DNA of 64,000 nt from a bacterium (GTDB taxonomy: Bacteria; Patescibacteriota; Minisyncoccia; Phycocordibacterales; Phycocordibacteraceae): the NCBI GenBank assembly GCA_023269085.1, contig JAHFML010000002.1:1266-65265 (forward strand), in the 5' to 3' direction. A model generated the notes under the pieces. The model was given only the letters and a program-made list of their open reading frames with translations, was not told the origin of the DNA and ran no database searches. The position numbers and the translations under genes were made by a program. Shown here piece after piece: positions 4,937 through 54,013 of this stretch (positions within the stretch are counted from its first letter, which is position 1; every line of letters starts with the position of its first letter).

Positions 4937-5614
4937 TTATTTTAAATATAAGAGCCGATATCTTTTATCGAGAGGTTGCAGCCTTACTGTCTCTACGATG
5001 TTTCGACGACCAGCATCAAAAGTAAGCCCACGTTGAGTGAGGGTGTCTCTAGCTTGTATTTTGGTTATGATTGGATATCCATTATTCAAATCTAATTCTG
5101 GGAAATCTATCTTCGGATGACCCTTTTCCCATAAGCTAAAGGCTTTTTCTCCTTTATAAACAAACCAAATCTTCGAAAAAGAAGAATCCATGGAAGCAGC
5201 GGATCTTTTTAATAAGTCTATTGTTACTGAATCAAATTCGAAAAAAGGGAACTCTAAAAGATCTGAATGCACAATTAACCACACCTCTTGCGCGCCACTT
5301 CTATCTGTGTACTCCTTAATACGTTTTTGCTTATTTTCTATAGTTTGTCGAAGCCAAATATGAGGTTCATTGGGTATGATTATTTCATAGGCTTTGCCAT
5401 GCTTTAAGCGTTTGATGGTCTTAGACCAAGACATTGCTCGTTCCATACTCAGATGACAGCAGTCTGCAGCTATTTTCTTACCGTCTATAGCGAACACCCA
5501 ATCAGGTTTATCAACAACATCAAGGTCGTCGATTACGCTAAACAAATTTTCTTTCAGAACAGATTTGACGGCATCTATGGCCAGTTGCTCGTTTTTAGTC
5601 CTTGTCTTGCGCAT
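4937..5614 (-). CDS. hypothetical protein 225 aa (AT-rich islet)
   Basis: ORF track. Confidence 0.45.
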   Translation of the reverse strand: MRKTRTKNEQLAIDAVKSVLKENLFSVIDDLDVVDKPDWVFAIDGKKIAADCCHLSMERAMSWSKTIKRLKHGKAYEIIIPNEPHIWLRQTIENKQKRIKEYTDRSGAQEVWLIVHSDLLEFPFFEFDSVTIDLLKRSAASMDSSFSKIWFVYKGEKAFSLWEKGHPKIDFPELDLNNGYPIITKIQARDTLTQRGLTFDAGRRNIVETVRLQPLDKRYRLLYLK

Positions 5615-6031: not shown

Positions 6032-6283
6032 TCAAATTGATTTGCTCGCGACTAAAGCAAACTTCTTCTCTCGCCGCCAGCCCTTAAGCTCGGTCTCGCG
6101 CTGGCGCGCTTCGCGGAGCGTCGAGAAAGTCTCGTGATACAGGAGTGTCACAGGTCGACGGGTTTTAGTATAATGCGCGCCCCATTTTGAATCGTTATGT
6201 TGCTTCATCCTCCTCTCGAGATCATTGGTGCATCCGACATAGAGAGACTGGTCAGCGCATTCGAGGATGTAGGTGAAATACAT
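6032..6283 (-). CDS. GIY-YIG nuclease family protein (83 aa)
   Basis: YILECADQSLYVGCTNDLERRMKQHN matches the GIY-YIG motif block. Confidence 0.8.
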   Translation of the reverse strand: MYFTYILECADQSLYVGCTNDLERRMKQHNDSKWGAHYTKTRRPVTLLYHETFSTLREARQRETELKGWRREKKFALVASKSI

Positions 6284-7818: not shown

Positions 7819-8439
7819 GTGTGGAGCTATATGGCGCTTGCTATCACCAAGGTTGAATCAGCCGATTTTGTAAAAGGGGTCATCGGGACGGATGACGTCT
7901 TCACTGATGGCGTGCCCGAGATCGCCTTCGTCGGCCGCTCAAATGTCGGCAAGTCGAGCCTCATCAACTCGCTCACTGGCCGTAAAGCTCTGGTCAAAGT
8001 GGGGAACAAACCGGGCAAGACGACGGAGCTCAACTTCTTCTCTATCAACAATAAGAAGTGCTATTTCGTCGACCTGCCGGGTTATGGCTATGCCAAGGCG
8101 ACGCCGAAGCAGAGAGGGAAGATCGAGAAGCTCATCCTCTGGTACCTTATGTACTCGGGTGCACAGCCGCGACGAGTTGTCATTATTCTCGATGTGAAGG
8201 CGGGGCTCACGGACTTTGATCAAGAGATGGTCTGCGTGCTCTGCGAGCAGGGGCATCCGTACACAATCGTCGCGAACAAAGTGGACAAGCTGAATCAGAA
8301 GGAGCTCGCGGCCGCCCTAAAGGGGATACGCGCCGCCGCAGGCGGCGCGGAGGTATTCCCGTATTCGACCATGACCGAGCGCAACAAGGCGGAGCTCTTC
8401 GCTGCGGTCGTCGCCGACGAACATGTATCTGACGAATGA
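7819..8439 (+). CDS. engB: ribosome biogenesis GTP-binding protein EngB/YsxC
   Basis: G1 motif GRSNVGKSSLIN, DLPGYG, NKVDK. Confidence 0.8.
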   Translation: MWSYMALAITKVESADFVKGVIGTDDVFTDGVPEIAFVGRSNVGKSSLINSLTGRKALVKVGNKPGKTTELNFFSINNKKCYFVDLPGYGYAKATPKQRGKIEKLILWYLMYSGAQPRRVVIILDVKAGLTDFDQEMVCVLCEQGHPYTIVANKVDKLNQKELAAALKGIRAAAGGAEVFPYSTMTERNKAELFAAVVADEHVSDE

Positions 8440-9166
8440 GCAGGCGAAGGCGAAGGTGCTCGCCCTGAAGTATGACGGCGCCCCGAGCGATGCCTATGCG
8501 GCCGACTGCGCGCGCATCGACGCGAGCGAGCCGTGGGAGTATGTGCTGGGGGCAGCCGACTTCCTCGACTGCACGATTGATCTCTCGGCACGGCCGATGG
8601 TCCCGCGCGATGAGACGGCGCATTGGGTCGCGCGCGTGATTGAAGAATGGAAGCATGAGCCTGCAGTGCAGGCACTCGACCTCTATGCCGGCTCGGGCAA
8701 TATCGGCATCGCGCTCGCCAAGCACCTGCCCACCGCAAACGTCACCTTCAACGAGCTGGATGAAAAATTGTTGCCACAAATAGCGAAGTCGCTTGAGCTA
8801 AACAGCATCGACGCGTCGCGCACGACCCTCATCGCGGGCGACAGTTTAGAAAAAATAGAAGGGAAGTTCGACCTCATCTGCGCGAACCCGCCGTATGTCG
8901 ACCCCGCGAGCGAGAACGAGATGGACCCCGAGATGCGGTATGAGCCGCACATCGCCTTCTTCGGTTCTCTTGACGGCATGGGGCATCACCGCGAGCTCAT
9001 ACGGGAAGGGAAAAGATATCTCACGCCACGCGGCGTGCTCTATGGCGAGTTCGACATGACGCAAGCAGATGAGATTAAAAAATTGCTCGCCGCGAGCGAT
9101 TGGCACTATGAGATATGGGACGACCCCTACGGCCACCCAGGGGTCATGGTGCTTCATGCAAGTTGA
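8423..9166 (+). CDS. prmC: release factor glutamine N5-methyltransferase
   Basis: NPPY catalytic motif, SAM-binding LDLYAGSGNIG. Confidence 0.8.
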   Translation: MYLTNEQAKAKVLALKYDGAPSDAYAADCARIDASEPWEYVLGAADFLDCTIDLSARPMVPRDETAHWVARVIEEWKHEPAVQALDLYAGSGNIGIALAKHLPTANVTFNELDEKLLPQIAKSLELNSIDASRTTLIAGDSLEKIEGKFDLICANPPYVDPASENEMDPEMRYEPHIAFFGSLDGMGHHRELIREGKRYLTPRGVLYGEFDMTQADEIKKLLAASDWHYEIWDDPYGHPGVMVLHAS

Positions 9167-9190
9167 GTAAGGTTCGACCTTACTCACTTG
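9159..9190. repeat. palindromic element family 2 copy (caagttGAGTAAGGTTCGACCTTACTCacttg) overlapping the prmC stop codon
   Basis: Near-perfect 32-nt palindrome; same core as copies at 46146, 46609 and 46874. Confidence 0.7.
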
Positions 9191-12875: not shown

Positions 12876-12932
12876 AACCGCGTACCAAATCGCTCCTATA
12901 GGAGCGATTTGGTACGCGCATTGCGGACATAA
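12876..12932. repeat. imperfect ~55-bp palindrome (core cgcgtaccaaatcgctcc-tat-aggagcgatttggtacgcg) at the cassette boundary
   Basis: Perfect 18-bp arms plus imperfect outer arms, no U-tract; sits just before repeat copy B. Confidence 0.6.
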
Positions 12933-21643: not shown

Positions 21644-21716
21644 CCGCCTCTAGCTCAATGGTTAGAGCACAGAGCTTATACCTCTGCGGTTCCTGGTTCG
21701 AGTCCAGGGAGGCGGA
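21644..21716 (+). tRNA. tRNA-Ile with anticodon UAU (ileX-like body)
   Basis: Cloverleaf folded by hand: acceptor CCGCCTC/GAGGCGG, anticodon stem CAGAG/CTCTG with loop CTTATAC, T-loop GGTTCGAGTCC, A73. Body resembles minor Ile tRNAs. Confidence 0.8.
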
Positions 21717-21740
21717 CTAGCGATTCTATTATATACTACT

Positions 21741-22437: not shown

Positions 22438-24645
22438 TTATTCCAAATGCGTCTCGGTGCCGAAGGAGAGGGCACGCCGAGCCAGCACAGGATACTTTTT
22501 TAATTCAGGGTCAGCCGCGACGAGGGCCGCGGCCTCGGCGCGCGCCGCTTCGACGAGCTTCAAATTTTTCAACGCCTCCATCGCGAGGTCAGAGATGCCC
22601 CACTGCCGACCGCCGGCGAGCTCGCCCGCGCCGCGGAGCGCGAGGTCGTATTCGGCGAGCTCGAAGCCGTCTTTGGCGGTGGTGAGTGCCTTCATGCGCT
22701 CCTTGGTCGCAGGGCCGAAGGACTCGGGGAGCGCGAAGCAATAGGCTTGATTGTTGGAGCGAATAACGCGGCCACGGAGCTGATGGAGCTGGGCGAGACC
22801 GAATCGCTCGGCGCCCTCGATGAGAATCACCGTCGCGTTCGGCACGTTGACGCCGACCTCGACCACCGAGGTCGCGACGAGGATGTTGATCGCGCCTTGT
22901 TCAAATCTCTTCATCACCGCCTCTTTTTCAGCCGGACGCATCTTGCTGTGCAGAATGTCGATGACGGCATTGGGGAATATTTCTTTTTGTAAACGCGCGG
23001 CCTCGGCCTTGACCGACTTGGCTTGGAGCGCGAGCTCTCGAGCAGGGTCGGGCTCGTCAATGCGCGGACAGATGACATACGCCTGCCGCCCTTTCGCGAG
23101 TTCACTCCGCACCCGCGTGTAGGCGAGCTCGCGCTTCTCGGGGCCGAGCACCTCGGTAATAATCGGCTTGCGGCCCGAAGGCATCTGGTCGAGGAGGGTG
23201 AGGTCGAGGTCGCCATAGAGCGTGAGCGCGAGCGTACGCGGTATCGGCGTCGCCGTCATCGAGAGGAGGTGCGGCGCGACGACGCCCTTACTCGCGAGCT
23301 TCTGTCGGTGCATCGTGCCGAAGCGATGCTGTTCGTCGATGATAGCGTAGGCGAAATATTTGAAGGCAAGCGACTTCTCGACGAGCGCATGCGTGCCGAT
23401 GACAATCGGTATTGTCCCCTCGGCGACGCGCTTGCGGAATGCGGGCTTGCTGATTTTCGCCGACTCCTCGTAGCGGACGCGAGAGGGGAAGACGCGGCAC
23501 TCGCTCCCCGTGATGAGGCCGATAGATATCGGGTGCTTTTTGAAATACGAAACAAAGGTCGAGAAATGCTGTTTGGCGAGGATCTCGGTCGGGCAGAGGT
23601 AAGCGACCTGGAGCGTCCCCGCGATGCGACCCCGAGGTACCGACGTTGCGACGAGGTAGGCGGTCGCCGCGGCGACCGCGGTCTTCCCGCTCCCCACATC
23701 GCCCTCGAGGAGTCGGAGCATCGGGTACTTTTTTTCAAAGTCAGCGACGATAGCGTCGATAGCGTGCCGTTGCGCCGCGGTCGCGGGGAAAGGGAATGAA
23801 GCTATGAAGTCAGCGAGCGACTTTTTATCGACCGAGACCGGTAGTGCCTCTTCGCGCAGGTGTTCTTGGCGGCGCTTCTGCATCACGATTTGGAGCGCGA
23901 AGATCTCTTCGAAGGCGAAGCGCTTGCGCGCCGCCTCCTTGTCCGCGAGCTTCTTCGGCGCGTGGACGAAGACGAGCGCGGTGACGAGGGAGGGGAGCTT
24001 GTAGCGTGCGAGAATGTCGGCAGGTATCGGGTCTTCGATAGTCTCATGCACGCCAGCTTCAAAGGCTTTGCGCACCGCGTGCATGAGCCAGAGCGATGAG
24101 ATGCCCATGCTCTCGGGGTACATCGGGTACAACTCAGCCTCGCGGGTGGACACTAGGTGTCCACCCGCAGACGGGTGGACACCTAGTGTCCACCCGTCTG
24201 GATTGAAAAGCGAAGTGTGTACCGCCTCGGGGTCAAGACCAGCCTTCGTGATCTCGGGGTTCGCGAGATACGCCTTCGCGCCCTCGCCGGCGATGCGCCC
24301 GCTTACCTTCACCTGCATGCCGTCGTGGAGCGACTTCGCGATATACGGCTGAGAGAACCACATCATCTTTATCTTCCCCGAATTGTCCTCGAGCCACGCC
24401 TCGGCGAGTGGGCGGCGACTCTTCCACGCCTTGCGCACCTCCGGCTTCCGCACGGTGCCATAGAGTGTCACCTCGCCACCCGCCACCGCACCCGCTATCG
24501 TGCCGGTCGGCCCCGCGTTCTCGTAGCGCGAAGGGAAGTGATAGAGCAAGTCGCGCACGGTCTTGATCCCGAGCTTCGCGAGCGCGCGCTTCTGCTCCAC
24601 CTTCATCCGCGGGAAGTGCTTCTCTAGGGGGTCTTGTGGATTCAC
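22438..24645 (-). CDS. recG: ATP-dependent DNA helicase RecG (carries an in-frame palindromic insertion)
   Basis: Wedge domain, helicase motifs GDVGSGKT, DEQHRFG, TATPIPRT. Confidence 0.9.
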   Translation of the reverse strand: MNPQDPLEKHFPRMKVEQKRALAKLGIKTVRDLLYHFPSRYENAGPTGTIAGAVAGGEVTLYGTVRKPEVRKAWKSRRPLAEAWLEDNSGKIKMMWFSQPYIAKSLHDGMQVKVSGRIAGEGAKAYLANPEITKAGLDPEAVHTSLFNPDGWTLGVHPSAGGHLVSTREAELYPMYPESMGISSLWLMHAVRKAFEAGVHETIEDPIPADILARYKLPSLVTALVFVHAPKKLADKEAARKRFAFEEIFALQIVMQKRRQEHLREEALPVSVDKKSLADFIASFPFPATAAQRHAIDAIVADFEKKYPMLRLLEGDVGSGKTAVAAATAYLVATSVPRGRIAGTLQVAYLCPTEILAKQHFSTFVSYFKKHPISIGLITGSECRVFPSRVRYEESAKISKPAFRKRVAEGTIPIVIGTHALVEKSLAFKYFAYAIIDEQHRFGTMHRQKLASKGVVAPHLLSMTATPIPRTLALTLYGDLDLTLLDQMPSGRKPIITEVLGPEKRELAYTRVRSELAKGRQAYVICPRIDEPDPARELALQAKSVKAEAARLQKEIFPNAVIDILHSKMRPAEKEAVMKRFEQGAINILVATSVVEVGVNVPNATVILIEGAERFGLAQLHQLRGRVIRSNNQAYCFALPESFGPATKERMKALTTAKDGFELAEYDLALRGAGELAGGRQWGISDLAMEALKNLKLVEAARAEAAALVAADPELKKYPVLARRALSFGTETHLE
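24144..24195. repeat. palindromic element family 1, two tandem units (GGGTGGACACtagGTGTCCACCC gcagac GGGTGGACACctaGTGTCCACCC) in frame inside recG
   Basis: Each unit is a perfect 10-3-10 palindrome; encodes GWTLGVHPSAGGHLVSTRE. Confidence 0.85.
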
Positions 24646-29127: not shown

Positions 29128-29223
29128 ATCGTTATTTACACCGAATAAAACGAGTAAGTCTCGCTTACTCCATACTACTCCCTCCCCGCCATTTTGTTTC
29201 GCCCCGCGTGGTAGCATAGGGGC

Positions 29224-35991: not shown

Positions 35992-37668
35992 ATGGTTCGA
36001 CGCCTTATCGAACGCCTGACGGCACCGGTACGCGGCCTGCATCAGGCCGCGTACTTGCTTGCCGCTCTCACGCTCGCCTCGCAAGCGCTTGCGCTCTTGC
36101 GCGACCGCACCTTCGCGCACGTCTTCGGGGCCGGGCAGACGCTCGATCTCTACTATGCCGCGTTTCGCGTGCCCGACCTCGTCTTCGCGCTCGTCTCCTC
36201 GCTCGTCTCCGCCTATGTGCTCATTCCGCGGCTCACGGGGCTCGATAGGGAAGGCACGCGGCGGCTGCTCTCCGAGTCGGCGTCATTCTTGCTCATCGCC
36301 GGCGGGCTTCTCTGTGCTCTGCTTGCGGTATTTATGCCGCAGGCTCTCCGGCTCCTGTATCCCGACCTTATTGCGTCGCCGGCACAAACGGAGTTCGTCG
36401 CTCTCTCTCGCCTCCTGCTCATACAACCGATCCTGCTCGGCCTCTCGGGCGTGTTCGGGAGCGTAACGCAGGTGCATCGTCGCTTCGTCCTCTTCGCACT
36501 CTCTCCGGTGCTCTATAATCTCGGCATCATCGTTGGCGCGGTCGCGCTCTATCCGCGCTTCGGGCTCATGGGCATCGGATGGGGCGTCGTTATCGGCGCA
36601 GTCGCATATCTGCTCGTGAATGTGCCAGTCATTATTTCCGCAGGAGTACTGCCGCGATTCGTCCTGCCAGAGTGGTCGCGCTTAGCGAGCATCGTACGCG
36701 ATTCGGTCCCGCGTTCGCTCGCGCTCGGCATGGGTTCGATAACGGCGCTCGCGCTCACCGCGCTCGCGTCCCGAGTCGGGACGGGCGCCGTCTCCGTCTT
36801 CACCCTCGCGGGTAATCTCGAGGCGGTGCCGCTCGCGCTCATCGGCTCCTCGTATGCGGTTGCGGCGTTTCCGGCACTCTCCGAAGCGTCGGAGAAAAAT
36901 GATAATGGCGAATTCTCGCGGGTGCTGTCGACCTCGGCACGGCACATCATCCTATGGTCGATGGTATCTCTCGGCCTCATTGCGGTCTTGCGCGCCCACC
37001 TTGTGCGCGTCATTCTCGGGACTGGCGCCTTCGATTGGGACGCAACGCGTCTCACCGCCGCGCTCCTGGTCGTCCTCGCGGTCGGTCTTGTCGCGCAGGG
37101 GCTGGTGCTCCTCTTCTCGCGCGCGCTGTATGCCGCGCGGCAATCCTGGCGGCCGCTCATGTATCAGATCGCAGGGGGATTGCTCACGGTCTTGCTCGCC
37201 GTAATATTTCTGCGGGCACCACAAAACGGATTTTTATCGACGCTCAACGCCTTCTTGAAGGCGGGTGACACAGGGACGGGAGCTATTCTACTCCTCGCTC
37301 TCGCCGCGACCCTCGGCCAGATATTCTTGGCTCTCCTCTCGCTCGCCGCTCTCCGTAGCGTTACGCCCGGTCTCGCCCGGTCGCTCGTGCGCCCTACCAT
37401 CGACGGAATGATAGCGGCTGTCGTTGGCGGTGCGGCTGCGCATGCCTCTCTCGTCATCGCGGGAGGCATAGCACCGCTAACGACTCTGCTCGCGGTCTTC
37501 ACGCAAGGGTTCGTTGCGGGTATCGTCGGCCTAGTAGCGGCTGGTCTCGCGCTCTTCTTCGTCGAAAATGAAGAGTTCAGAAGTGTTATAACAGCACTCA
37601 AGCGTCTCGGGCGCGCTCGGGCCTCCGGCATTCTCGCGCCATCGGCCGAAGAGCCGATCAAATCATGA
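35992..37668 (+). CDS. murJ: lipid II flippase MurJ/MviN
   Basis: 14 TM, conserved FRVPDLVFALVSSLVSAYVLIP N-terminal region. Confidence 0.8.
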   Translation: MVRRLIERLTAPVRGLHQAAYLLAALTLASQALALLRDRTFAHVFGAGQTLDLYYAAFRVPDLVFALVSSLVSAYVLIPRLTGLDREGTRRLLSESASFLLIAGGLLCALLAVFMPQALRLLYPDLIASPAQTEFVALSRLLLIQPILLGLSGVFGSVTQVHRRFVLFALSPVLYNLGIIVGAVALYPRFGLMGIGWGVVIGAVAYLLVNVPVIISAGVLPRFVLPEWSRLASIVRDSVPRSLALGMGSITALALTALASRVGTGAVSVFTLAGNLEAVPLALIGSSYAVAAFPALSEASEKNDNGEFSRVLSTSARHIILWSMVSLGLIAVLRAHLVRVILGTGAFDWDATRLTAALLVVLAVGLVAQGLVLLFSRALYAARQSWRPLMYQIAGGLLTVLLAVIFLRAPQNGFLSTLNAFLKAGDTGTGAILLLALAATLGQIFLALLSLAALRSVTPGLARSLVRPTIDGMIAAVVGGAAAHASLVIAGGIAPLTTLLAVFTQGFVAGIVGLVAAGLALFFVENEEFRSVITALKRLGRARASGILAPSAEEPIKS

Positions 37669-39533
37669 ACCAAGATACTATCCGCAACTTTTCCATTATC
37701 GCGCACGTCGACCACGGCAAGTCGACGCTCGCTGACCGCATGCTCGAGCGCACGGGCGCCATCCCCGAGCGTCTGATGCGCGACCAGGTACTCGACCGCA
37801 TGGACCTTGAGCGCGAGCGCGGCATCACGATCAAGATGCAGCCCGTAAGAATGGTTTACCATTCTGGAGGTCCCGAGCGAAGCGAGGGACAAGAGCGGGA
37901 CTACATCCTCAATCTCATCGACACGCCCGGGCACATCGACTTCTCCTATGAAGTGTCGCGCGCATTGAATGCTGTCGAGGGAGTGCTCCTACTCGTCGAT
38001 TCGACGCAGGGCGTGCAGGCGCAGACACTGACGACGCTTGCGATGGCGCGCGCGCAGAGTTGCGTCATCATCCCCGTCATCTCAAAGATTGATGCACCCG
38101 CCGCGCGCGTCGAGGAAGTGTCGCAAGAGCTCGCCGACTTACTTGGTGTCGCGCGAAGTGAGGTGATCGCGGTATCGGGTAAGACCGGTGCGGGTGTCGA
38201 TGAGCTGCTTGAGGCGATCGTACAAAAAATCCCGCCGCCGCAATCTTCGTGGACATCGGATGTCCACAGCAACCGTGGACATCCGATGTCCACGAACGTG
38301 GGTGAGCCGCGCGGCCTCGTCTTCGACTTCTCGTATTCGAAGCATCGCGGCGTCGCGGTTTATCTGCGCGTCTTCGACGGCGTCTTCAAAAAGGGCCAGC
38401 CGCTCATCTTCAAGGCGGCAGGGAAGGAGTTCGTCGCGCTTGAGACCGGCATCTTCACGCCCGAAGAGACGCCCGCCACGGAGCTCGCGGCGGGCGAGAT
38501 CGGCTACATTGTCACGGGGATCAAAGAGGCCGGCGTCGTCGCGGTCGGCGACACGGTCGGTGTTGCGAAAGGTGCGCTCCCGGCCTTCCACGGCTTCGAG
38601 CGGCCGCGGCCGGTCGTGTGGGCGTCGGTGTATCCTGAGAGCCAAGACGATCTCCCGCTCCTGCGACAATCCCTCGAGCGCTTGCGGCTCTCGGACTCGT
38701 CACTCTCTTTTGAAGAGGAGTCATCCGGCGTGCTCGGTCGCGGCTTCCGGTGCGGCTTCCTCGGCCTCTTACATCTCGAGATAATCACCGAGCGCTTGCG
38801 GCGCGAGTTCGGTCTCGCGCTCATCGTCACGATCCCGACTATCTCGTATGTCGTTACAACGACGAAGGGCGCGCGGGAGGTCGTCTACACGCCGGCGAAG
38901 TTCCCCGAATACGGCGATATCGCGCTTATCGAAGAACCGTGGGCGAAGGTCGTCATCATCACGCCGCCGGACTCGCTCTCAGCGCTCATTCAGCTCCTCT
39001 ATGAGCACGAGGCGAACACGCTTGGCACCGAGACCTATCATGACGGGCGCGTCGAGATGACGGTCGAGATGCCGCTCCGCGAGCTCATGCGCGGATTCTT
39101 CGACACGCTCAAGAACATTTCATCGGGCTATGCGTCGCTCTCCTATGAGCTCCTCCCCGAGCGCCTGGCGGATGTCGTCCGGCTCGATGTCTTGGTCGCT
39201 GAAGAGGCCGTGCCCGCCTTCGCGCGCGTTATTGCGCGTCGCCGCGTGGTCGAAGAGGCAGAGAAGATGGTCGAGAAGCTGCACAGCGTCCTCCCGAAGC
39301 AGCTCTTCGTCACCAAGATCCAAGCGAAGGCGCTCGGGCGCGTCATCTCCTCGAAGACGCTCTCGGCAATGCGCAAGGATGTGACCGGCTATCTTTATGG
39401 TGGCGACGTCTCGCGCAAGAACAAGCTCCTCGACAAGCAGAAGCGCGGCAAGAAGAAGATGCTCGAGCGCGGAACGGGCAAAGTCAACATTCCCGAAGAA
39501 GTTTTCATGAAGATGGTGCGGGCTGATGCGTAG
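37665..39533 (+). CDS. lepA: elongation factor 4 (LepA), carrying an in-frame palindromic insertion
   Basis: [20 protein letters not shown], LepA C-terminal domain YGGDVSRKNKLLDKQKRGKK. Confidence 0.9.
   Translation: MNQDTIRNFSIIAHVDHGKSTLADRMLERTGAIPERLMRDQVLDRMDLERERGITIKMQPVRMVYHSGGPERSEGQERDYILNLIDTPGHIDFSYEVSRALNAVEGVLLLVDSTQGVQAQTLTTLAMARAQSCVIIPVISKIDAPAARVEEVSQELADLLGVARSEVIAVSGKTGAGVDELLEAIVQKIPPPQSSWTSDVHSNRGHPMSTNVGEPRGLVFDFSYSKHRGVAVYLRVFDGVFKKGQPLIFKAAGKEFVALETGIFTPEETPATELAAGEIGYIVTGIKEAGVVAVGDTVGVAKGALPAFHGFERPRPVVWASVYPESQDDLPLLRQSLERLRLSDSSLSFEEESSGVLGRGFRCGFLGLLHLEIITERLRREFGLALIVTIPTISYVVTTTKGAREVVYTPAKFPEYGDIALIEEPWAKVVIITPPDSLSALIQLLYEHEANTLGTETYHDGRVEMTVEMPLRELMRGFFDTLKNISSGYASLSYELLPERLADVVRLDVLVAEEAVPAFARVIARRRVVEEAEKMVEKLHSVLPKQLFVTKIQAKALGRVISSKTLSAMRKDVTGYLYGGDVSRKNKLLDKQKRGKKKMLERGTGKVNIPEEVFMKMVRADA
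38249..38293. repeat. palindromic element family 1 variant, two tandem units (GTGGACATCgGATGTCCAC agcaacc GTGGACATCcGATGTCCAC) in frame inside lepA
   Basis: Perfect 9-1-9 palindromes; encodes WTSDVHSNRGHPMST in a loop between LepA domains. Confidence 0.85.
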
Positions 39534-46145: not shown

Positions 46146-46175
46146 GAGTAAGGTCGAACCTCACTCAACTTACTC
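46146..46175. repeat. palindromic element family 2 copy (GAGTAAGGTCGAACCTcactcaaCTTACTC) at the tsaD 3' end
   Basis: Same arms and core as the 9159 copy. Confidence 0.7.
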
Positions 46176-47398
46176 GGTAAGTGAACGGCGGCCGGAGGCG
46201 ACAGGGGTGTGGGTGAATTCTTCGCGAAGAGCACGGTAGAAGCCGGCGAGCGCGATCATGATGGCGTTGTCGGTCGTGAGTGCCGCCGGCGGTATGCGTA
46301 GCTCAACGGGTGGACACCTAGTGTCCACCCGAGTCGCCACCGAATGCTTGAAGATGCGGCGGATGTGGGTGTTCGCCGAGACGCCGCCGCCGATGACGAG
46401 CGTCTCGGCACCAGTCGCTTCGAGCGCGCGCTCGGTCTTCTTCCACAACACCTCGGCAACGGCGTCTTCGAATTCTCGCGCGAGCTCATGCTTCTCGCGC
46501 TCGGTCACCTCGGGATTTTTCTTCAACAAATACAACACCGCCGTCTTGAGCCCGGCAAAGGAGAAGTCGCACGTCGCATCATTCAGCATTGGCCGCGGCA
46601 AGGTTGGTGTGAGTAAGGTCGAACCTTCCTCATTTGATGAGTAAGGTTCGACCTTACTCACGCTACTACGCGCTATCTCAGCGAGACGCGAGATCTCCGG
46701 CCCGCCCGGGTAGGGGAGCGAGAGCATCCGTGCGACCTTGTCAAAGGCTTCGCCGACCGCGTCGTCGCGTGTCGCCCCGACGAGCTCATACTCAAGCCAG
46801 CTCTTCATCACGACGAGCTCGGTGTGGCCACCCGAGATGAGGAGCGCGAGCACCGGCAAAGCGACGTCTTTCACTTCAAGGTTCGACCTTGAAGAAGATT
46901 CTCGCGCGAGCGCGGCCATGATATGGCCCTCCATATGATTGACCGCGACGATCGGCTTCTCCCATGCGAGGGCGAGGGCGCGTGCGAAGTTCACGCCGAC
47001 CCAAAGCGCTGGCTCGAGGCCGGGGCCCGCGGTGACGGCGATGACGTCGATATCGGGTCGTTCAGATTCCGAGACGAAGTCGAGGAACGCTTCAGTGAGG
47101 CCGGGCTCGCGCGACAAAATCTCTGCGATTTTGTCGCGCGTCTCTTCGCGCATCGCTTGCATATCCTCGTGCAAGAGCTCAGCCTCTTCAAGCGCCGCCT
47201 CAAGTATCGGGACGAGATTCTTCGCGTGTTCGCGTTTGGCGAGCATCGGGTAGACGCCGCCATACTCGCGGTGCAGATCTATCTGCGAGAGGAGCGCATT
47301 CCCGAGTACGGCAAACTCCGCGTTCGCCTCATCGCCTGTCGCCTCAACGATAGCAATCGCCGTCTCGTCACAGCTGGTCTCGATAGCGAGAATTTTCA
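46170..47398 (-). CDS. tsaD: tRNA N6-adenosine threonylcarbamoyltransferase TsaD, about 409 aa, expanded by three in-frame palindromic insertions
   Basis: MKILAIETSCDETAIAIV N-terminus, HMEGH motif. Typical TsaD is about 340 aa. Start set at MKIL because the track start is a non-ATG codon. Confidence 0.85.
46308..46330. repeat. palindromic element family 1 unit (GGGTGGACACctaGTGTCCACCC) in frame in tsaD
   Basis: Identical to recG unit B; encodes part of ...ATRVDTRCPPVELR... Confidence 0.85.
46609..46661. repeat. compound palindromic element family 2 in frame in tsaD (gtGAGTAAGGTCGAACCttcctcatttgatGAGTAAGGTTCGACCTTACTCac)
   Basis: Encodes ...SSVSKVEPYSSNEEGSTLL... Confidence 0.8.
46874..46894. 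repeat. palindromic element family 2 variant (CTTCAAGGTTCGACCTTGAAG) in frame in tsaD
   Basis: Perfect 21-nt palindrome with the same AAGGTTCGACCTT core; encodes ...SNLEVKD... Confidence 0.75.
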
Positions 47399-47419
47399 TA
47401 ATGATGGTAGTATAGCGCA

Positions 47420-48830: not shown

Positions 48831-49772
48831 CTACCGCACAAAGCGGGTGTAGATGCCGGCGGGGATGACGCGGTCGCCTGTGGTCTCTTTGATGAAGAGC
48901 TCGCCACATTCACCATGCGTCTCGCCGCCTGCGCCGAGCATGGTCGAGGCGAAAGCGCTCTCGACCGCCTGCGCGAAAGAGCGCGGGGCATAGCCGGCGG
49001 CATAGCCGTTCAAGAGGAAGAATGAGCCCGGTGTGTCGGCGAGCAGGTCGTGCAGGGTAATGAGCAATTCGGGGAGCGCTTCTTCGATCTTCCACACCTC
49101 GCCCTTGGCGCCGCGCCCGAAGGCGGGCGGGTCGAGGATAATGCCGTCGTAGTGAACGTCGCGGCGCAGCTCGCGGCGGGCGAAGGCGAAGGCGTCGTCG
49201 AGCACCCAGCGGATAGCGTCTTCGCTCACCCCCGAGCGGCGCGCGTTGTCGTGCGCCCAGTCGAGCGACTGCTTGGACGCATCGACATGCGTCACCTTCG
49301 CTCCCGCCTGTGCCACAACGACCGAGGCGATACCGGTGTAACCGAAGAGGTTAAGCACGTGGGGAGAAATGTCGGACATCGTAAGTCCTACATCTGATGT
49401 AGGACTTACGATGTCCGACATAGAAATTGCCTTCACGCGCCCTTCGAGCCACTCCCAGTTAGGCGCCTGCTCGGGGAAGATGCCCGTGTGCTTGAAGCTC
49501 GTGAGCGCGGCGGTGAACTTCGCGTCTCGCCACGCGAGCTCCCATACGTCGGGAACGGGCTTTCGGACGTCCCAGCCGCCACGCTTATCGCGGAAGACGA
49601 AGACCGCGTGCGCATCATGCCATAATTCCGGTCGCCGCTTCGCCCACAACGCTTGCGTCTCTGGCCGCGCGACAATGACCTCGCCGAAGCGTTCGAGCTT
49701 CATGTTATCGCCAGAGTCGATGAGCTCGTAATCGCTCCAAGGAAGTGTTGTGAGATGTTGGTCGTATTTCAT
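48831..49772 (-). CDS. class I SAM-dependent rRNA methyltransferase (RlmI/RlmK-like) with an in-frame palindromic insertion
   Basis: FGYTGIASVVVAQAGA SAM motif I, ILDPPAF motif IV. Confidence 0.6.
   Translation of the reverse strand: MKYDQHLTTLPWSDYELIDSGDNMKLERFGEVIVARPETQALWAKRRPELWHDAHAVFVFRDKRGGWDVRKPVPDVWELAWRDAKFTAALTSFKHTGIFPEQAPNWEWLEGRVKAISMSDIVSPTSDVGLTMSDISPHVLNLFGYTGIASVVVAQAGAKVTHVDASKQSLDWAHDNARRSGVSEDAIRWVLDDAFAFARRELRRDVHYDGIILDPPAFGRGAKGEVWKIEEALPELLITLHDLLADTPGSFFLLNGYAAGYAPRSFAQAVESAFASTMLGAGGETHGECGELFIKETTGDRVIPAGIYTRFVR
49371..49419. repeat. palindromic element family 1 variant (GTCGGACATCGTAAGTCCTACATC | GATGTAGGACTTACGATGTCCGAC), perfect 24+24 palindrome in frame in the methyltransferase
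   Basis: Encodes MSDIVSPTSDVGLTMSDI; shares the GGACATCG/CGATGTCC core with the lepA copy. Confidence 0.85.
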
Positions 49773-52251: not shown

Positions 52252-52338
52252 GGAGAGGTGGCAGAGTGGTCGAATGCACTGGTTTCGAAAACCAGCAGGG
52301 GCGAAAGCTCCTCGTGGGTTCAAATCCCACCCTCTCCG
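52252..52338 (+). tRNA. tRNA-Ser (anticodon CGA)
   Basis: Acceptor GGAGAGG/CCTCTCC, anticodon loop TTCGAAA, long variable arm, T-loop GGTTCAAATCC. Confidence 0.85.
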
Positions 52339-53858
52339 CAGAAAGAAACTTCCGAATCCGAAAGGTGGGAAGAAGCCCGCGCCGAAGGCGCGGGAGTGGG
52401 CAAAAGATGCCGTCGCTCCGCGACGAATTGGGACGGGACGGGCGTGGCGAACTGGGCGGATTTGTCACGAACCAAGGGGTTCGTTCCGATTTTTTGGACG
52501 AACGATTTGATTTGGTACAAATCAGATGAGGGGGACAAAAAATTGGCTTGTTTCGTATCTAAAATCCATTCCCGCAAGGGTTCGACCCAATTATTTCTTC
52601 CGCGTTCAAAATCTTTCTCTTTTTGACGCAAAGCGGCGAGAGAGCGCATGAGCATATCTTTTCGCTTCAAGTAAATATCCTTTGGTACATCACCATCGAG
52701 ATACGTAGAAACCAGTTTTTCCATGCGCTCCTCGTTCGCTTTGATACTGTCGTAAAGATTTTGAACCTCGCTTTGCGACGCTCTAATTTCCTCACGCTCC
52801 CACACTTTCACTTTGTTCAACATCCAATCGGTATAGCGATCGCAAAGCGAAATTGTTTGAAGCCGTGCACAGAGTTGCCGTGCAAGCTCACTTTCTTGCA
52901 AATACGCTTGCGAACAGTGGCCGCGCTTTTTCGAGCACCGATAATACCGATAACGACCACCAGATTTTCCAGTTGCCCACTGCGCGGAAATCATCGAACC
53001 ACACTCGGCGCATCGAAAAAGACCAGTAAAAGGAAAATCATGCTTGATTTTCCTTTTACGCGGCCGTTCTTTCGTTTGCAATACTTTCTGCACGGCTTCA
53101 AACAATTGCGGAGAAATAATTGGCTCAAAGTTTCCATCAAACCATTCCTGTCCATGCTTCACAAAACCAAGATAGGCACGATGCGTAAGAAGCCGTTTGA
53201 TGGAAACTTTGGCAAGTGGCGTTTGGTTACGAGTCACCACGCCCAAGTCCGCCAAAAATTGAGCGAGCGAAATATAAGTGTGCGACCCCTTGGCGTATTC
53301 TTGAAAAGCTAGATTTACCACGCGAGCATTTGTCGGATGAGGCTCAATATTTCTCACCTTCGGATTATTGGTGTAGCCAAAGGGAGCTAAATTCAACCAT
53401 TCGCCTCGTCTCAATTTTTGGCGGACGCCACGCTTGATATTGTCAGATAGATTATCACTGTAATATTTCGATTGCCCAAACGCCACTTGCAACATAAAGA
53501 GCCCTTGCGGGGTTGGTTCAAACCAAAATGTCGGAAAGCGCAAAGACACAACCTTGTGAGTGTCTACGGCGTAAATAACTCGTCCACCGTCAATACTGTT
53601 ACGCGCGAGGCGGTCGGGATGCCACGCCAATATACCGACACCATCTAGTTTTTCAATTTTCGCGAACATTTCGCCGAACACCTCGCGCCCCGGTGTCTTT
53701 GCGCTTTTCGACTCTTGAAATTCCTCAAGAATTTCAAGATTTTCTTTACGCGCCAATTCTCGCAGTTCAAAAAGCTGTGCCTCAATGGACATCACTTGTC
53801 GGTCATCATCCTCGGTACTCTTACGCGCGTATAGAAAATATTTTGGTTTGATATTCAT
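52320..53858 (-). CDS. large serine recombinase (true start MNIKPKYFLYARKST at 53858; last ~45 codons lie within IR1-L)
   Basis: Resolvase catalytic domain YARKSTEDDDRQVMSIEAQ (Ser nucleophile), recombinase domain, Cys4 zinc ribbon CAECGS...YRCSKKRGHC, C-terminal coiled coil. Confidence 0.85.
   Translation of the reverse strand: MNIKPKYFLYARKSTEDDDRQVMSIEAQLFELRELARKENLEILEEFQESKSAKTPGREVFGEMFAKIEKLDGVGILAWHPDRLARNSIDGGRVIYAVDTHKVVSLRFPTFWFEPTPQGLFMLQVAFGQSKYYSDNLSDNIKRGVRQKLRRGEWLNLAPFGYTNNPKVRNIEPHPTNARVVNLAFQEYAKGSHTYISLAQFLADLGVVTRNQTPLAKVSIKRLLTHRAYLGFVKHGQEWFDGNFEPIISPQLFEAVQKVLQTKERPRKRKIKHDFPFTGLFRCAECGSMISAQWATGKSGGRYRYYRCSKKRGHCSQAYLQESELARQLCARLQTISLCDRYTDWMLNKVKVWEREEIRASQSEVQNLYDSIKANEERMEKLVSTYLDGDVPKDIYLKRKDMLMRSLAALRQKEKDFERGRNNWVEPLREWILDTKQANFLSPSSDLYQIKSFVQKIGTNPLVRDKSAQFATPVPSQFVAERRHLLPTPAPSARASSHLSDSEVSFCGEGGI
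52336..52466. repeat. IR1-L: 131-bp inverted repeat starting inside the last 3 nt of tRNA-Ser(CGA)
   Basis: Perfect reverse-complement match to 53883-54013. Contains internal hairpin CCCGCGCCgaaGGCGCGGG. Confidence 0.9.
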
Positions 53859-53882
53859 ATTGCTTTTAGATACGAAACAAGA

Positions 53883-54013
53883 GACAAATCCGCCCAGTTC
53901 GCCACGCCCGTCCCGTCCCAATTCGTCGCGGAGCGACGGCATCTTTTGCCCACTCCCGCGCCTTCGGCGCGGGCTTCTTCCCACCTTTCGGATTCGGAAG
54001 TTTCTTTCTGCGG
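53883..54013. repeat. IR1-R: inverted partner of IR1-L, 25 bp upstream of the recombinase start codon
   Basis: 131/131 identity as reverse complement. An extra 17-nt match (cttgtttcgtatctaaaa) lies just outside. Confidence 0.9.

Follow-up and report, generated by a model that had tools for sequence, protein, structure and literature searches.

A candidate REP/REPIN-type palindrome family of CPR bacteria with an inverted doublet in frame in tsaD

In Escherichia coli and Pseudomonas, repetitive extragenic palindromes (REPs) are hairpin units of 20-40 nt that occur in many dispersed copies, frequently as inverted doublets (REPINs). They are published as lying close to gene 3' ends, within about 20 nt, and housekeeping genes have been reported to contain intragenic REP dimers that encode 20-30 residues (PMC3733652). 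The REP-associated tyrosine transposase (RAYT) is encoded by a single Y1/HUH gene, which has cognate repeats at its flanks and a conserved chromosomal position, and the repeat sequence co-varies with the transposase lineage. This study concerns a 64,000-nucleotide stretch (64 kb, 56% G+C; hereafter the window) of contig JAHFML010000002.1 from a bacterium of the candidate phyla radiation (CPR, Patescibacteria), and a 23-nt palindrome within it, which is called family 2 to set it apart from another palindrome of the same window, family 1. Family 2 resembled the REP/REPIN-RAYT systems in hairpin size, doublets, placement and transposase association, and probably in dispersal, and differed from them in having a conserved outer stem of TGAG...CTCA where those carry a 5' GTAG or CGTC tag, perfect palindromes, a CPR host with a small genome, a transposase of about 220 aa, and many copies inside essential genes. 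We consider it probable that family 2 is a REP of CPR bacteria and its inverted doublet a REPIN-like element, that both were spread by a transposase of the Y1/RAYT type, and that the doublet in the tsaD gene is translated as a tolerated loop.

Protein-coding genes of fungal mitochondria also receive short mobile hairpin doublets, the double-hairpin elements and GC clusters, which belong to organelles; translation bypasses some of them, and no Y1 transposase is known to be associated with them. The intragenic REPs and the Rickettsia palindromic elements (RPEs) are likewise in frame, often dimers of about 20 residues, and located in housekeeping genes of DNA repair and translation that stay functional (PMC3733652). 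RPE-1 elements are longer, with 100-150 nt, and the Rickettsia elements lose their repeat identity with time (PMC6649704), whereas many of the palindromes described here stay perfect and one codon position is re-used by many families across species. The mitochondrial coding palindromes of Nematomorpha are similar in being perfect inverted repeats in conserved coding sequence, with all-or-none perfection and with gain and loss between species, and their proposed cause is template switching or arm conversion (PMC6649704, which also mentions GC-cluster-like bypass elements). However, those palindromes are mitochondrial, reach 284 bp, and do not form multi-copy families tied to a transposase, whereas those found here are bacterial and have arms of 8-26 bp.

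Copies of family 2 and the transposase beside them

The family-2 unit, TGAGTAAGGT-tcg-ACCTTACTCA, is a 23-nt hairpin, its stem having 10 bp and its loop 3 nt, and occurred four times in the window and never in shuffled sequence. The copies at 9164-9186 and 46638-46660 were perfect, and those at 46146-46168 and 46610-46632 had one mismatch each. Searching with the 21-mer GAGTAAGGTTCGACCTTACTC gave the same four places, with no mismatch at 9165-9185 and 46639-46659, one mismatch at 46146-46166 and 46611-46631, and no match in shuffles. In addition to these copies, the window contained two relatives, namely the palindrome at 46874-46894, in which the 13-nt core AAGGTTCGACCTT was found again at 46878-46890, and an outer-stem variant (Table 1), whose GAGTAAG..CTTACTC pattern had three matches compared with none in shuffles. 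The original prediction had located all of these palindromes correctly to within one base; the looser variant, given as 29153-29170, was present and starts at 29152. In the whole window, 22 perfect hairpins with stems of at least 10 were counted, versus 0.75 in dinucleotide shuffles.

Two of the copies lie at gene 3' ends. The predicted overlap with the prmC stop was confirmed, since the copy at 9164-9186 supplies the TGA of a methyltransferase open reading frame (ORF) with a PF05175 MTS domain, and the copy at 46146-46168 occupies the tsaD-valS spacer, which has 70 nt in the window versus 22-27 nt in relatives. The RNA hairpins of these copies had calculated free energies of -14.3 kcal/mol (z = -4.9) and -15.1 kcal/mol, respectively, within the range of single family-2 hairpins (-14 to -15 kcal/mol, z = -4.9 to -6.7). 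TGA and TAA occupy two of the three frames of the unit on both strands, and the palindrome is therefore able to end genes and has a single usable frame inside them.

Loci from other genomes that were compared with the window are numbered L001-L100. The exact 21-mer was found in three other CPR metagenome-assembled genomes (MAGs), so the palindrome is a dispersed multi-copy family as predicted, with copies beyond this locus. One of these MAGs, labelled Saccharibacteria and having 42-46% G+C, contained at least 10 copies on five contigs, while the other two had 61% G+C. All exact copies in the other genomes but one were not spanned by a long ORF, and 7 of the 11 places that held an exact copy were within 20 nt of a gene 3' end or overlapped a stop codon, as the window copies at 9164 and 46146 do. 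The exact 21-mer was not found in viral contigs, and thus there was no sign of phage carriage. Inverted doublets were frequent, at 46609-46661, 24143-24196 and 38246-38296 in the window and at 5506-5569 in L004. Overlapping tandem arrays of family 2, in which AAGGTCGAACCTTACTC is present three times, were also observed (L002 4139-4195; L001 209-258), which suggests slippage or fold-back amplification of the hairpin.

The repeat was found together with a transposase gene in the Saccharibacteria-labelled MAG. The protein of L004 ORF 5599-6258 (219 aa) matched the Pfam Y1_Tnp domain with 27.1 bits (cut-off 23), and a second Y1 gene of the same MAG, in L007 and flanked by a different palindrome family, matched it with 36.5 bits against the same cut-off. 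REP_Tyr_transpos was the only NCBIfam hit, with 35-43 bits versus a cut-off of 80. The HUH histidines and the Tyr-x-x-x-N-P motif were invariant and aligned with those of E. coli RayT. Exact family-2 copies lay upstream of the L004 gene in opposite orientations (5506-5528 and 5547-5569), and another lay over its stop (6252-6274). The L004 protein had 2,793 homologs, several of them from Paceibacteria and some named RayT by JGI. Six homologs (L095-L100) were viewed in their contigs, and each of the transposase genes had its own palindrome on both sides: TGAGGAAGGT-cga-ACCTTCCTCA in L099 and L100 (67% identity to the L004 protein), AAAGGTCGAACCTTT in L098 (68% identity), and TGAGGGAGGC-type palindromes in L095-L097 (49-58% identity). 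Family 2 or a relative with the AAGGTCGAACCTT core thus flanked the Y1 gene in four other CPR genomes (L004, L098, L099 and L100), and a sister family did so in L095-L097. Because each homolog was flanked on both sides by a palindrome of its own, the repeat tracks the transposase lineage. The Y1 gene had a murD-like ligase gene on one side and a murC-like one on the other in all seven loci (L004 and L095-L100), a fixed position as would be expected of a vertically inherited RAYT. The hairpin repeats, the inverted doublets, the placement at 3' ends, and the single Y1 gene with flanking repeats together make up the anatomy of a REP/REPIN-RAYT system, or REPtron, in these genomes.

Palindromes in tsaD and other genes

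The tsaD gene of the window encodes 409 aa, in accordance with the predicted length of about 409 aa, and the peptides quoted for its insertions were also correct. The catalytic motifs were intact, and an identical 409-aa protein is recorded in public assemblies. Its closest relatives are labelled as MAGs of Minisyncoccia, Paceibacterota or Patescibacteria; those at 70-86% identity have 390-420 aa, with a clade baseline of about 390 aa. An alignment of 24 relatives showed that, compared with the 390-aa forms, the protein of the window has about 19 residues more, distributed over three variable sites. The larger excess appeared only against the solved bacterial TsaD structures (335-343 aa), from which the protein differed by about 7 extra residues at the N-terminus, 40 at aa 76-114, 10 at site 1, 17 at site 2, and 6 at site 3. 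The block of about 40 residues was the largest extra piece and was clade-wide, being present in about 90% of 80 TsaD orthologs. By alignment, most of the excess is this clade-wide segment, with the three palindrome insertions as a minority; the original assignment of all of about 70 extra residues to three insertions did not hold, as the palindromes give about 19 relative to the 390-aa forms.

The three sites were defined via codon alignment with four syntenic orthologs, and they were empty in 390-aa orthologs, which supported the claim of in-frame, lineage-specific additions. Site 2 contains the compound copy of the original prediction, which proved to be an inverted doublet whose 25-nt arms have one mismatch; it encodes 18 residues (peptide stretch VSKVEPYSSNEEGSTLL) and is missing from the 390-aa ortholog L013. 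The two copies of the doublet are read in different frames, and a canonical second copy would read GAG TAA. The sole arm mismatch, GAGTAAGG to GAGGAAGG (T to G), changes this to GAG GAA, by which the in-frame TAA is lost; this stop-removing mismatch argues that the insert is translated. The same change was present in L012, which hints that some occupants of the site were inherited and others replaced. The region 46609-46661 folded with -40.1 kcal/mol (z = -11.7). In the AlphaFold model of TsaD, the mean pLDDT (predicted local distance difference test score) was 87 and the sole stretch below 50 was residues 249-261, inside the doublet, so the site-2 insert is predicted to be the only disordered loop of the protein. 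Sites 1 and 3 were located in loops between secondary-structure elements of the model.

Family 2 had been predicted to account for two insertions in tsaD. This was true of the doublet at site 2, but not of 46874-46894 at site 1, where a palindrome with a CAAGG..CCTTG core was present at the same codons in 17 of the 80 orthologs, in some of them without net insertion; judged from these alignments, it seems to be a positionally conserved resident and not a fresh family-2 insertion. At site 3, palindromes related to that of the window (TGTGGATATC-g-GATATCCACA and others, of the TGTGGAyAyC type) were found in 9 other orthologs.

Site 2 was variable among the 80 aligned tsaD orthologs, which had been recovered from metagenomes. 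At least 4 extra residues were present in 37 of them, and in 19 of these 37 the extra sequence was a perfect palindrome with arms of 8-23 bp, representing at least 16 different sequences. Because of this diversity of perfect palindromes across the 80 orthologs, site 2 is an insertion hotspot. The occupants included TGAGGGAGG-type palindromes, which resemble those flanking other RAYTs; that of ortholog L038 belongs to the GTGGACATC family, found in lepA in the window; and some in other genomes carry GTAG, such as TGTAGGACATC and TGTAGAAGT. The hotspot may reflect targeting, replacement of a resident repeat, or mere tolerance of a loop by the protein.

Palindromes of 51-54 nt were also in frame in recG, lepA and an S-adenosylmethionine (SAM) methyltransferase gene of the window (Table 1), all in linkers or loops. 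The one in the methyltransferase gene is an exact 18-codon insert, is missing from three syntenic orthologs, and folded with -43.4 kcal/mol. At the same site, palindromes containing GGAC (e.g. GGACATC, GGACGT) were seen in L019, L033, L036, L037, L042 and L057. An assembly artefact was rejected as the source of the coding palindromes, which are in frame and at the same codons in many independent assemblies, with one protein identical in two sources.

Table 1. Palindromes of the window and the genes in which they lie
Feature	Position	Strand	Remarks
Family-2 copy, perfect	9164..9186	.	First three bases are the TGA stop of methyltransferase ORF 8423-9166
Outer-stem variant GAGTAAGtctcgCTTACTC (GAGTAAG-tctcg-CTTACTC)	29152..29170	.	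Between two divergently oriented ORFs
Family-2 copy, one mismatch	46146..46168	.	Starts 2 nt past the tsaD stop, in the tsaD-valS spacer
tsaD, 409 aa, intact	46170..47399	-	HMEGH and GGGVSAN motifs present
Site 1, CTTCAAGGT-cga-ACCTTGAAG (plus strand: CTTCAAGGT-tcg-ACCTTGAAG)	46874..46894	-	tsaD aa 169-176, SSRSNLEV; family-2 core
Site 2, REPIN-like family-2 inverted doublet	46609..46661	-	tsaD, in frame, aa 247-264, peptide VSKVEPYSSNEEGSTLLT
Site 3, family-1 palindrome CGGGTGGACAC-cta-GTGTCCACCCG	46307..46331	-	tsaD aa 357-365; net +4 residues
Resident coding palindrome CGCGCGACAAAATC-n5-GATTTTGTCGCGCG	47108..47140	-	tsaD aa 87-98, within the clade-wide segment of 40 residues
Family-1 inverted doublet, 54 nt	24143..24196	-	In recG ORF 22438-24645, between wedge and helicase domains
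Inverted doublet of GTGGACATC-s-GATGTCCAC	38246..38296	+	In lepA 37665-39533, between GTPase domain and domain 2
53-nt perfect palindrome	49369..49421	-	18-residue insert in SAM methyltransferase gene 48831-49772

The palindrome at tsaD aa 87-98 recurred at the same codons in 20 of the 44 closest orthologs, with perfect 12-16-bp arms of differing sequence (among them L010-L013, L017, L020, L022, L024, L026-L028, L036, L042, L045, L049 and L050). Paired changes in its arms gave RDKI..ILSR, RAKI..ILAR and RTKI..ILVR (D/S, A/A and T/V). Double-sided changes were counted in 55 cells, compared with 27 ± 4.5 in 500 shuffles, none of which attained this count, and the covariation score was 0.258, compared with 0.05-0.14 when the pairing was slid; these statistics are inflated by the relatedness of the sequences, and the result is suggestive and not proof. 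In a survey of 899 kb, comprising L001-L093 and the window, 115 palindromes with arms of at least 14 were perfect, 18 had one mismatch and 31 had two, which suggests active upkeep of arm identity. With arms of at least 10, the survey gave 268 perfect palindromes versus about 6 in shuffles, approximately half of them deep inside ORFs. Grouping the palindromes by the 8-mers they share merged all of them into a single cluster. A comparison of G:T with A:C mismatches as a test of RNA-level selection rested on only 8 intragenic mismatches. A palindrome near the start of murJ, GTACGCGGCCTG-nnn-CAGGCCGCGTAC with the loops cat, gtg or atg, was present at 36028-36054 of the window and conserved in L014 (20490), L016 (17578), L017 (14660), L026 (20784), L049 (20707) and L057 (21051).

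Several other features of the window were observed. A large serine recombinase gene with Resolvase, Recombinase and zinc-ribbon domains (52320-53984, minus strand) abuts a tRNA-Ser/Glu/Val cluster and is followed by a block of ORFs with low third-position G+C; an integrated mobile element probably occupies the region of about 52.1-56 kb. At 12879-12918, two small ORFs without a Pfam match are separated by a unique loop-free perfect palindrome of 40 nt, CGCGTACCAAATCGCTCCTA / TAGGAGCGATTTGGTACGCG. The tRNA-Ile at 21644-21717 has the anticodon TAT, which is unusual, as bacteria mostly read AUA via a modified CAU anticodon.

Weighing of the explanations

If family 2 is a REP, a single-copy RAYT-type Y1 (HUH) tyrosine transposase would recognise the folded hairpin in single-stranded DNA, as reasoned from REP/RAYT and IS200/IS605, and would cut and rejoin it, by which singlets and doublets of about 53 nt would spread. 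A copy landing near a gene 3' end could supply the stop codon, and most survivors do lie just past stop codons. To survive inside a gene, a copy would need a length that is a multiple of three, use of its single open frame, and a surface loop or linker that tolerates it; all three features are seen in the tsaD doublet, which would give a disordered loop of 18 residues. The genome of the window would then possess a RAYT that moves the copies, which would be selfish or neutral rather than functional.

Several points weigh against this reading. The link between REP and RAYT was seen only in genomes other than that of the window, and tblastn searches for E. coli RayT and the CPR Y1 proteins in 93 loci and in the window detected no Y1 transposase gene in the window or in the 80 tsaD loci; the sole hits were two Y1 genes in the MAG CAYRMI01. 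Neither murD nor murC was found in the window, so the RAYT locus expected in this genome would lie elsewhere. The score below the NCBIfam equivalog cut-off points to a divergent Y1 clade. The units begin with TGAGTAAGG in family 2 and with GGGTGGACAC in family 1, neither of which is a GTAG or CGTC tag, and as the tag is not present, family 2 was filed in neither the GTAG nor the CGTC superfamily (PMC3733652). In addition, classic REPs are imperfect palindromes, in contrast to the perfect one of family 2. The hotspot, as well as the positional persistence with co-varying arms, goes beyond what simple insertion and decay would predict. To our knowledge, RAYT-driven mobility of REPs in vivo has been demonstrated in no organism.

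Among the alternatives, it is unlikely, although less so than the others, that the palindromes arise and stay perfect in place by template switching during replication (quasi-palindrome correction, fold-back synthesis) without any transposase, in CPR genomes that tolerate and extend hairpins even in coding DNA. The surplus of perfect over mismatched arms and of perfect palindromes over shuffles in the 899-kb survey, with about half deep in ORFs, fits this idea, as do the palindromes at aa 87-98, site 1 and site 3, which are at the same codons across species with arms that co-vary, and the flanks of many family-2 copies, which prolong the palindrome with locus-specific sequence; the idea itself was proposed for the mitochondrial coding palindromes of Nematomorpha (PMC6649704). 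But it leaves unexplained that identical 21-23-mers are found at unlinked loci, in genomes of 42% and of 61% G+C, and that palindromes are present on both flanks of Y1 genes in several genomes. Template switching could act on top of REP spread, and perhaps it explains the 46874 and 47108 palindromes better.

Selection of each copy as a functional signal, such as a terminator, a stabiliser of mRNA 3' ends, a site that a dimeric protein binds, or a sequence for DNA uptake, appeared improbable. The copies are concentrated right past stop codons, form stable hairpins, and have the same sequence in very different genomes, and REPs elsewhere are credited with mRNA stabilisation (PMC3733652). However, the hairpins are not followed by a T-tract, and the scan for terminators made no call on the family-2 copies; in the tsaD-valS spacer it called another hairpin, 46127-46114, which matches the conserved part. 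Co-transcription of tsaD with valS is probable, given a spacer of only 22-27 nt in relatives, and the proposal that intergenic copies act as terminators was not supported. The copies inside tsaD, recG, lepA and the methyltransferase gene have no plausible role as signals, about 4 copies per 64 kb are far below the density of uptake sequences, and related genomes have different sequences at the same places. The least probable explanation was the MITE (a miniature transposable element with inverted repeats) of the original prediction, descended from a tRNA T-arm and moved by a DDE transposase encoded by an insertion sequence acting on terminal inverted repeats. The core does contain GGTTCGA, the T-loop consensus, and the longest tRNA match was 9 nt (AGGTTCGAC in tRNA-Arg), but similarity to the nine tRNAs of the window was confined to this universal heptamer, the hairpin has a 3-nt loop instead of a 5-bp stem with a 7-nt loop, and ARAGORN and Rfam gave no tRNA-like match at the copies. 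Searches of the tsaD region with Rfam yielded only sub-threshold matches to generic microRNA hairpins, which are meaningless here. Comparison of filled and empty sites revealed no target-site duplications, and there are no separate terminal inverted repeats, the whole unit being one hairpin. The 23-nt hairpin and its inverted doublet of about 53 nt flank a Y1/HUH gene in other genomes, and not one for a DDE transposase, which is the anatomy of REP/REPIN and not of a MITE.

Implications for CPR genomes and proteins

The palindromes of this CPR clade could be more than the debris of insertion. Tentatively, we suggest that they are kept at fixed codons of essential genes (tsaD aa 87-98, site 1, and the N-terminus of murJ) across species whose TsaD proteins are 70-85% identical, while their arms change together. 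A search of the literature found nothing specific on coding palindromes in CPR bacteria. If the suggestion is true, the arms would be actively homogenised, by hairpin-templated conversion or by repeated RAYT-mediated replacement, or there would be selection on DNA or RNA structure in coding sequence. REPIN capture would then regularly supply CPR proteins with the lineage-specific extensions that are typical of them, and these palindromes would be a bacterial counterpart of those found in Nematomorpha mitochondrial genes.

Family 2 adds a new REP family to a known type of system, in a phylum for which our literature search showed no description; no paper mentioning RAYT or REPIN together with CPR or Patescibacteria was found, and work on REPs and RAYTs has so far dealt almost entirely with Proteobacteria. 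Streamlined episymbiont genomes of about 1 Mb keep a Y1 transposase at a fixed position between murD and murC together with its hairpin repeats, and these repeats would be written into essential genes as translated loops. Via such insertions, part of the length variation of CPR proteins would be accounted for, and annotators and structure predictors may take such loops as derived from repeats. The site-2 hotspot of tsaD would provide a natural presence/absence marker, as well as a compact system for studying how hairpin repeats meet the constraints of coding sequence.

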